Both the position numbers and the translations under genes were made by a program. Under the pieces are notes generated by a model that saw only the letters and a program-made list of their open reading frames with translations, did no database searches and was not told the origin of the DNA. From the NCBI RefSeq assembly GCF_003334305.1, contig NZ_QOWS01000004.1: a DNA stretch of 64,000 nucleotides; one strand, written 5' to 3'. This DNA is from Escherichia coli. GTDB lineage: Bacteria; Pseudomonadota; Gammaproteobacteria; Enterobacterales; Enterobacteriaceae. Of the stretch, positions 21,334 through 21,371 are shown in pieces. Within the stretch, counting starts at the first letter, position 1. Each line of letters starts with the position of its first letter.

Positions 21334-21371
21334 GGTACTATTTCCTGTAAGAATTGACTCATCTGGAGCCT

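Follow-up and report, generated by a model that had tools for sequence, protein, structure and literature searches.

Overlapping ('face-to-face') divergent promoters were reportedly classified by Beck and Warren in 1988. The pairs ilvY/ilvC and argE/argCBH are examples of such overlapping divergent promoters, and Conway et al. (PMC4161252) described overlapping 5′ ends, by 168 nt on average, for 136 of the 388 divergent operons (35%) of E. coli, so that overlapping divergent transcription is a common state in this species. The yqfB/bglA locus of E. coli resembles these systems in that yqfB (− strand) and bglA (+ strand) are adjacent and opposite and share an upstream region of only 38 or 44 bp, and in that elements of two bglA promoters (P1 and P2) lie within the leader, start codon and coding DNA of yqfB. 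It differs from them in that start sites are mapped for bglA only and in that transcript overlap is shown for P2, while for P1 we infer it; moreover, we know of no regulator bound to the shared region in E. coli, unlike in ilvY/ilvC or the arg operon. A second comparable class comprises the bidirectional promoters described by Warman et al. (bioRxiv 10.1101/2020.01.31.928960, PMC12825309), in which, as here, one short A/T-rich region lies at a divergent pair. The yqfB/bglA geometry is however reversed, the two promoters facing and overlapping each other instead of standing back to back. A third resemblance is to pairs of a sugar-catabolic gene and a MurR/RpiR (HTH_6 + SIS) repressor, since a 244-aa HTH+SIS gene stands directly upstream of bglA in Klebsiella, Citrobacter, Enterobacter, Kluyvera and others, but this regulator gene is missing from Escherichia. 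The gap, the gene identities and the bglA start sites are already public in annotation and datasets, and overlapping divergent promoters are a well-known class. What we add is that the tight gap and its −10 element occur family-wide with a different partner gene, lost in Escherichia, and that the annotated bglA start is probably two codons too long; both additions are modest and will not surprise a specialist.

The window (the whole stretch of 64,000 nt that was analysed) derives from the E. coli chromosome. Over the 901 nt around the gap, the sequence shares 100% identity with strain 503025 and no less than 95% with each of the 5,426 complete E. coli genomes; it also agrees with K-12 MG1655 at every position of a 161-nt segment that has the gap at its centre. 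MG1655 coordinates convert to window coordinates by subtraction of 3022290 on the right-hand side of the ygfZ–trhA spacer, an offset verified by sequence identity. That spacer itself (20123–20198) measures 76 bp here and 195 bp in MG1655, K-12 being ~119 bp longer, presumably through REP copies, and the MG1655 offset therefore changes across it; a sub-threshold Rfam match to the REP-derived naRNA4 was seen at 20109–20182 (30.2 bits versus a gathering threshold of 59.5). According to the open reading frame list and the RefSeq annotation, yqfB (21022–21333, − strand) encodes an N4-acetylcytidine amidohydrolase of 103 aa and starts with ATG at 21333–21331. The bglA gene (21372–22811, + strand) encodes 6-phospho-beta-glucosidase A and starts with either ATG 21372 (479 aa) or GTG 21378 (477 aa). 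The complement of the yqfB start codon, CAT, occupies 21331–21333 and the bglA ATG occupies 21372–21374, leaving 38 bp between them (21334–21371). The divergent start codons 38 bp apart that the preliminary description reported are thus exact under the K-12 annotation (MG1655: yqfB 3043312–3043623, bglA 3043662–3045101, gap 38 bp), whereas PGAP annotation of the identical strain begins bglA at GTG 21378 (477 aa), which makes the gap 44 bp. For comparison with related species, one genome per species was sampled, giving 80 yqfB loci, and the −10 element was compared in the 76 Enterobacteriaceae loci.

We then placed the gap among the 26 divergent gene pairs of the MG1655 annotation between 2.95 and 3.15 Mb (200 kb). 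Sorted by size, these gaps measure 17, 38, 54, 55, 102, 111, 121, 141, 152, 156, 160, 167, 173, 185, 190, 193, 204, 213, 242, 250, 254, 277, 290, 435, 453 and 475 bp, with a median of ~179 bp, and only one of them is smaller than the yqfB/bglA gap. A gap of this size belongs to the short tail of the distribution and is uncommon, but neither exceptional nor unique. The tighter pair is yggR/yggS (MG1655 3095080–3095098, outside the window), whose divergent gap is 17 bp.

Two start sites of bglA have been mapped by SMRT-Cappable-seq (Yan et al. 2018, PMC6131387). The P1 start site, found in both conditions, lies at MG1655 3043638 (+), or window position 21348, with a transcript end at 3045143, and the P2 start site lies at MG1655 3043485 (+), or window position 21195, within the yqfB coding sequence. 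Position 21348 falls inside the 38-bp gap and leaves a leader of 24 nt to ATG 21372 or of 30 nt to GTG 21378. Upstream of it, the sequence contains an extended −10 element, TGgTACTAT (21333–21341, + strand), with TG at 21333–21334 and the hexamer TACTAT at 21336–21341, likewise within the gap, which matches the −10 consensus at four of six positions and ends 7 nt before the start site. A rough position weight matrix (PWM), exploratory and built on consensus frequencies, predicted a P1 start at ~21348, equal to the published site. The −35 element is poor (GTGATG, with three of six matches, or AGTGAT), and its region coincides with the first codons of yqfB. With its TG one base upstream of a TAnnnT hexamer, its poor −35 and its start 7 nt downstream, P1 is, to judge by its sequence, an extended −10 (TGn) σ70 promoter. 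An atypical base, T, stands at the published start, and the coordinate may therefore be wrong by one position.

The P1 element and the translation start of yqfB share the same DNA. The TG begins opposite the yqfB start codon, its T pairing with the A of the ATG, and the hexamer covers the stretch between the yqfB Shine-Dalgarno sequence (AGGAA) and the yqfB start codon. The bglA core promoter is consequently inseparable from the start of yqfB translation, which matters for the design of knock-outs and promoter swaps and for the reading of polar effects. A stricter σ70 consensus scan of positions 20700–22000 found no promoter; it missed the mapped one because it demanded 9 of 12 matches and gave no credit to extended −10 motifs. 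The yqfB/bglA spacer is also not among the 177 divergent spacers bound by RpoD holoenzyme in genomic SELEX, an absence that is compatible with weak promoters and lends them no positive support. An Rfam scan of positions 20000–23000 returned nothing in or near the gap.

The P2 start lies 139 nt inside the yqfB coding sequence and is preceded by an extended −10-like motif, TGcAAAAAT (21180–21188, + strand), which may serve as its −10 element. The resulting bglA leader, 177 nt long, is antisense to yqfB over the initial 139 nt of its coding sequence, an arrangement that resembles excludon-type antisense overlap. It departs from an excludon in that the overlap is short, and yqfB and bglA are not known to repress each other or to be functionally opposed. 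Outward-reading transposon promoters inserted in yqfB have been shown to activate bglA (PMC10258560). The preliminary description held that each promoter must lie inside the leader or coding DNA of the other gene. For bglA this was borne out, with P1 on the ribosome-binding site and start codon of yqfB and P2 inside its coding sequence; for yqfB it follows from geometry. The further proposal of overlapping divergent transcription or long 5′ untranslated regions agrees with the long antisense leader of P2, while P1 has a leader of only 24–30 nt and its overlap with the yqfB transcript is a matter of prediction.

The geometry for yqfB is set by its Shine-Dalgarno sequence, AGGAA (21342–21346, − strand), which stands ~8 nt upstream of the ATG, with an anti-Shine-Dalgarno duplex of −4.3 kcal/mol, and whose complement TTCC is conserved at each position in at least 66 of the 76 loci. 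Only 2 nt separate this element from the bglA start at 21348, and the −10 and −35 elements of yqfB must therefore overlie the bglA leader and first codons. Within this region the highest yqfB-sense PWM score (6.4, in the top ~0.5% of window positions) belongs to TATCAT (21372–21377, − strand), the complement of bglA ATGATA, with a predicted start at ~21365 and a weak −35 (TTCGGT). TATCAT is the top-scoring yqfB-sense candidate in five of six Escherichia loci, and we consider it the best candidate for the yqfB −10 element, as a consensus match only. A family-wide yqfB promoter was also considered, and several candidates turn up repeatedly, for example TTGAGA-18-TGgGAGAAC located ~52 nt upstream inside the regulator gene; they were rejected, as they are coding sequence that is deleted in Escherichia and hence irrelevant to E. 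coli. On the other side of yqfB, trhA (yqfA) has its own start site at MG1655 3043184 (−), window position 20894, in the yqfB–trhA spacer (SMRT-Cappable-seq, PMC6131387), so that yqfB and trhA need not form a single operon. An extended −10-like TGgAACTAT precedes this start (window ~20894–20915, − strand).

Overall, we consider it very probable that the locus is a compact divergent control region with interdigitated transcription units, comprising the bglA promoters, a yqfB promoter facing them and the trace of a lost regulator. In this arrangement, bglA is transcribed from the weak extended −10 promoter TGgTACTAT, with its poor −35, laid over the DNA that specifies the ribosome-binding site and start codon of yqfB, and a second bglA promoter fires from within yqfB at 21195. 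The promoter of yqfB would lie to the right, over the leader and first codons of bglA, with transcription probably starting near 21365 from the TATCAT that overlaps the bglA ATG. If TATCAT is real, the two mRNAs would overlap by ~18 nt at their 5′ ends, and an RNA polymerase bound at one promoter would exclude polymerase from the other.

Such a reading presupposes that the gap is as short as annotated. It could instead be an annotation artefact, with one of the genes starting well downstream and a normal-sized intergenic region between them, and there is some reason to question the bglA start. PGAP begins the gene at GTG 21378, and nearly all of the ~70 non-Escherichia bglA orthologues first align at residue 3 of the 479-aa frame, the codon equivalent to that GTG. 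Likewise, the NCBIfam model NF011589 (BglA subfamily, 477 positions) aligns to residues 3–479, and the K. pneumoniae bglA frame encodes 477 aa, the length also given for Klebsiella BglA in PMC3415461 (Table S5). The bglA Shine-Dalgarno sequence, GGAG (21365–21368, + strand; duplex −5.6 kcal/mol), ends ~3 nt before ATG 21372 and ~9 nt before GTG 21378, and the latter distance is the spacing that yqfB itself uses. From these sequence features we favour GTG 21378 over ATG 21372 as the true bglA start, with some reserve, and the K-12/UniProt BglA protein would then probably carry two extra N-terminal residues (MI) through an annotation two codons too long. This alternative start adds only 6 bp, however. 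The bglA frame is open from 21354. The conserved N-terminus of BglA begins at the GTG codon, so no later start is plausible, and the mapped start site at 21348 is compatible with either start codon. On the other side of the gap, the yqfB frame has no start codon upstream of the annotated ATG. YqfB scores 174 bits against the NCBIfam equivalog NF003443 (cutoff 93), its residues 1–103 aligning to profile positions 1–103 of 104, and its N-terminus is kept from residue 1 in 80 loci, as far as Haemophilus; for these two reasons we regard the yqfB start codon as solid. With either bglA start the gap is at most 44 bp and a normal intergenic region is not rescued, which makes an artefact extremely improbable. 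Use of a downstream start codon had been named beforehand as the observation that would speak against the short gap; bglA probably does begin six bases on, at GTG 21378, and this leaves the conclusion unchanged.

Given a short gap, the two genes could also be served by one symmetrical bidirectional promoter of the Warman/Grainger type, in which the −10 elements coincide on opposite strands, the starts lie ~18 bp apart and the transcripts do not overlap. The −10 region is indeed A/T-rich and partly symmetrical: AATAGT on the yqfB strand overlaps TACTAT, and the TATTAT found in relatives reads GATAAT or AATAAT on the other strand. The partner start would fall near 21330, however, downstream of both the yqfB ATG (21333) and its Shine-Dalgarno sequence, and a minus-strand transcript starting there could not encode YqfB, so a shared −10 is excluded on geometry. 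In addition, AATAGT has a PWM score of only 1.1, and the locus was not found in the supplementary text files of a 2026 study of E. coli bidirectional promoters. We therefore judge a shared promoter highly improbable. Somewhat less improbable, but still unlikely, is that yqfB has no dedicated nearby promoter and is expressed either as a leaderless mRNA beginning at its start codon or by antisense transcription from a remote promoter far within or past bglA. No yqfB start site is listed in the SMRT-Cappable-seq tables, which include bglA and trhA (PMC6131387), and the rows covered of the Ettwiller 2016 tables likewise gave none. Across genera, too, no strong yqfB-sense promoter was found at a conserved distance. 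Against this, SMRT-Cappable-seq is said to size-select long molecules, so that a yqfB mRNA of ~350 nt would be missed. A leaderless mRNA is also argued against by the conserved Shine-Dalgarno sequence at proper spacing, no acceptable −10 is suitably placed for transcription to begin at 21333, and yqfB is expressed steadily enough to be usable as a qRT-PCR control. Interdigitated transcription units with a yqfB promoter over the beginning of bglA remain the reading that we prefer.

The comparison of related genomes suggests how this arrangement arose. Among the 80 loci, bglA is 37–38 bp from yqfB only in Escherichia (E. coli, E. albertii, E. whittamii and the cryptic clades). In Citrobacter, Enterobacter, Klebsiella, Raoultella, Kluyvera, Leclercia, Kosakonia, Pluralibacter and others, bglA stands ~900 bp from yqfB, and between the two lies a 244-aa MurR/RpiR-type gene, oriented like bglA, whose GTG start codon and the yqfB ATG are separated by 42–46 bp. 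This HTH+SIS gene occupies positions 1723–2457 (−) of sampled locus L047 and ~1700–2460 in L010 and most of L009–L079. The 244-aa protein of K. pneumoniae matches the HexR, MurR/RpiR and AlsR models over residues 9–218 (E values of 2e-16 to 2e-13) and SIS-domain enzymes over residues 84–211. Its scores fall well short of the cutoff in each curated NCBIfam family (HexR, MurR, AlsR), and it is therefore none of the named E. coli paralogues. From the position of its gene, we infer that it regulates bglA. One of the loci with this typical enterobacterial yqfB–regulator–bglA order, L056 (CACSKA010000005.1), is titled 'Chryseobacterium sp. 18061'; its yqfB, bglA and spacer match L050, 'Citrobacter sp. 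18056', of the same project, and the assembly is probably mislabelled or contaminated.

The −10 element of P1 appears to be older than its present use. A TGnTAnnnT motif abuts the yqfB start codon at the same position in 73 of the 76 Enterobacteriaceae loci; its variable bases are mainly those that the consensus leaves degenerate, and T, A, A and T hardly ever change. Two Salmonella loci and Intestinirhabdus lack the motif, and in all three the interval is rearranged. Part of this conservation could come from constraints on yqfB translation initiation or from shared ancestry. The tight divergent gap is, on this comparison, ancestral, with a different right-hand partner. Outside Escherichia, bglA has an upstream block of its own, TGTAACA(A/T)ATNACA … TTGTTATATCGTGACATTT … TTTGTTAGACTC (L010 ~1605–1740, − strand; same place elsewhere), whose motif can also be written TGTAACA…TGTTATATCGTGACA. 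This block contains palindromic half-sites and a TAGACT −10-like hexamer, is probably the operator of the regulator together with the native bglA promoter, and is wholly missing in Escherichia.

The spacer of E. coli retains part of the ancestral sequence. Its left part (21334–21357) is homologous to the ancestral yqfB–regulator spacer, with left-anchored alignments of the left 16–24 nt scoring 7.2–7.8 against about −1 to −2 ± 1.7 for shuffled sequences. The right part (21350–21377) contains or adjoins the junction left by the missing regulator gene. In right-anchored and free local alignments it showed no significant similarity (z < 1.5) to regulator-proximal sequence, bglA-proximal sequence or the ~900-bp interval, and as these 28 nt match nothing, the junction is not placeable more finely than 21350–21378. 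Two origins for this right part were tried and rejected: that the E. coli GTG is the start codon of the regulator fused to bglA codon 2, and that the right half of the spacer is the native bglA leader. In both cases the alignments were no better than shuffled controls. An CTGGAGCC-N7-GTG in E. coli equals an CTGGAGCC-N7-ATG in Intestinirhabdus in sequence and spacing (8/8; z = 1.5), and this CTGGAGCC match may be due to chance.

The loss of the regulator appears complete in E. coli. A blastn search with the Citrobacter regulator gene gave no match in any of the 5,426 complete E. coli genomes, all of which have yqfB and bglA contiguous, so that the loss is fixed in the species. In Salmonella arizonae and diarizonae (L025 and L035, 2344–2500), the yqfB–bglA gap is 157 bp and keeps ~25 nt of the regulator 5′ end, a remnant from which it follows that the gene was lost there by deletion. 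On grounds of parsimony, it is likely that the Escherichia ancestor lost the regulator and the bglA upstream region through a deletion of ~850–900 bp. Such a deletion would leave bglA under the former promoter of the regulator. Prasad and Schaefler reportedly found in the 1970s that E. coli expresses phospho-β-glucosidase A constitutively and at a low level, and work attributed to Zangoui (2015) is said to have implicated a 4-nt promoter insertion at bglA in a gain of esculin use. Loss of the regulator fits this weak, unregulated expression and the insertion, as well as the activation of bglA by transposon promoters. It would provide an evolutionary account of E. coli bglA as an unregulated, weakly expressed gene and opens no long-standing question.

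A bolder version of this account, which we put forward as rather doubtful, is that one deletion removed the RpiR-type regulator together with the promoter and operator of bglA, fused bglA to the extended −10 of the regulator and made the polymerase sites of yqfB and bglA mutually exclusive, with anticorrelated expression in single cells. If true, it would explain the weak constitutive expression of bglA, and an ac4C-salvage enzyme and a phospho-β-glucosidase would be anticorrelated from cell to cell. Functional coupling of yqfB and bglA expression is speculative.

Several loci have diverged individually. In S. arizonae and diarizonae, the yqfB-adjacent extended −10 is degraded (TGTGGTTAT, TGTAGTTAT), and the bglA start codon of S. 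arizonae is TTG instead of ATG. Intestinirhabdus alba (L043 ~1841–2500) carries an insert of ~130 bp that separates the yqfB start from the ancestral spacer; its yqfB–bglA distance is ~660 bp and its regulator is apparently truncated. In Escherichia sp. MOD1-EC7003 (L007 2463–2500), the gap is 37 bp and one base has been lost from the −10 element (TGGTATATT), and substitutions make a perfect TATAAT a few bases downstream (CCTATAATAATTG), a combination in the spacer sequence that suggests promoter turnover.
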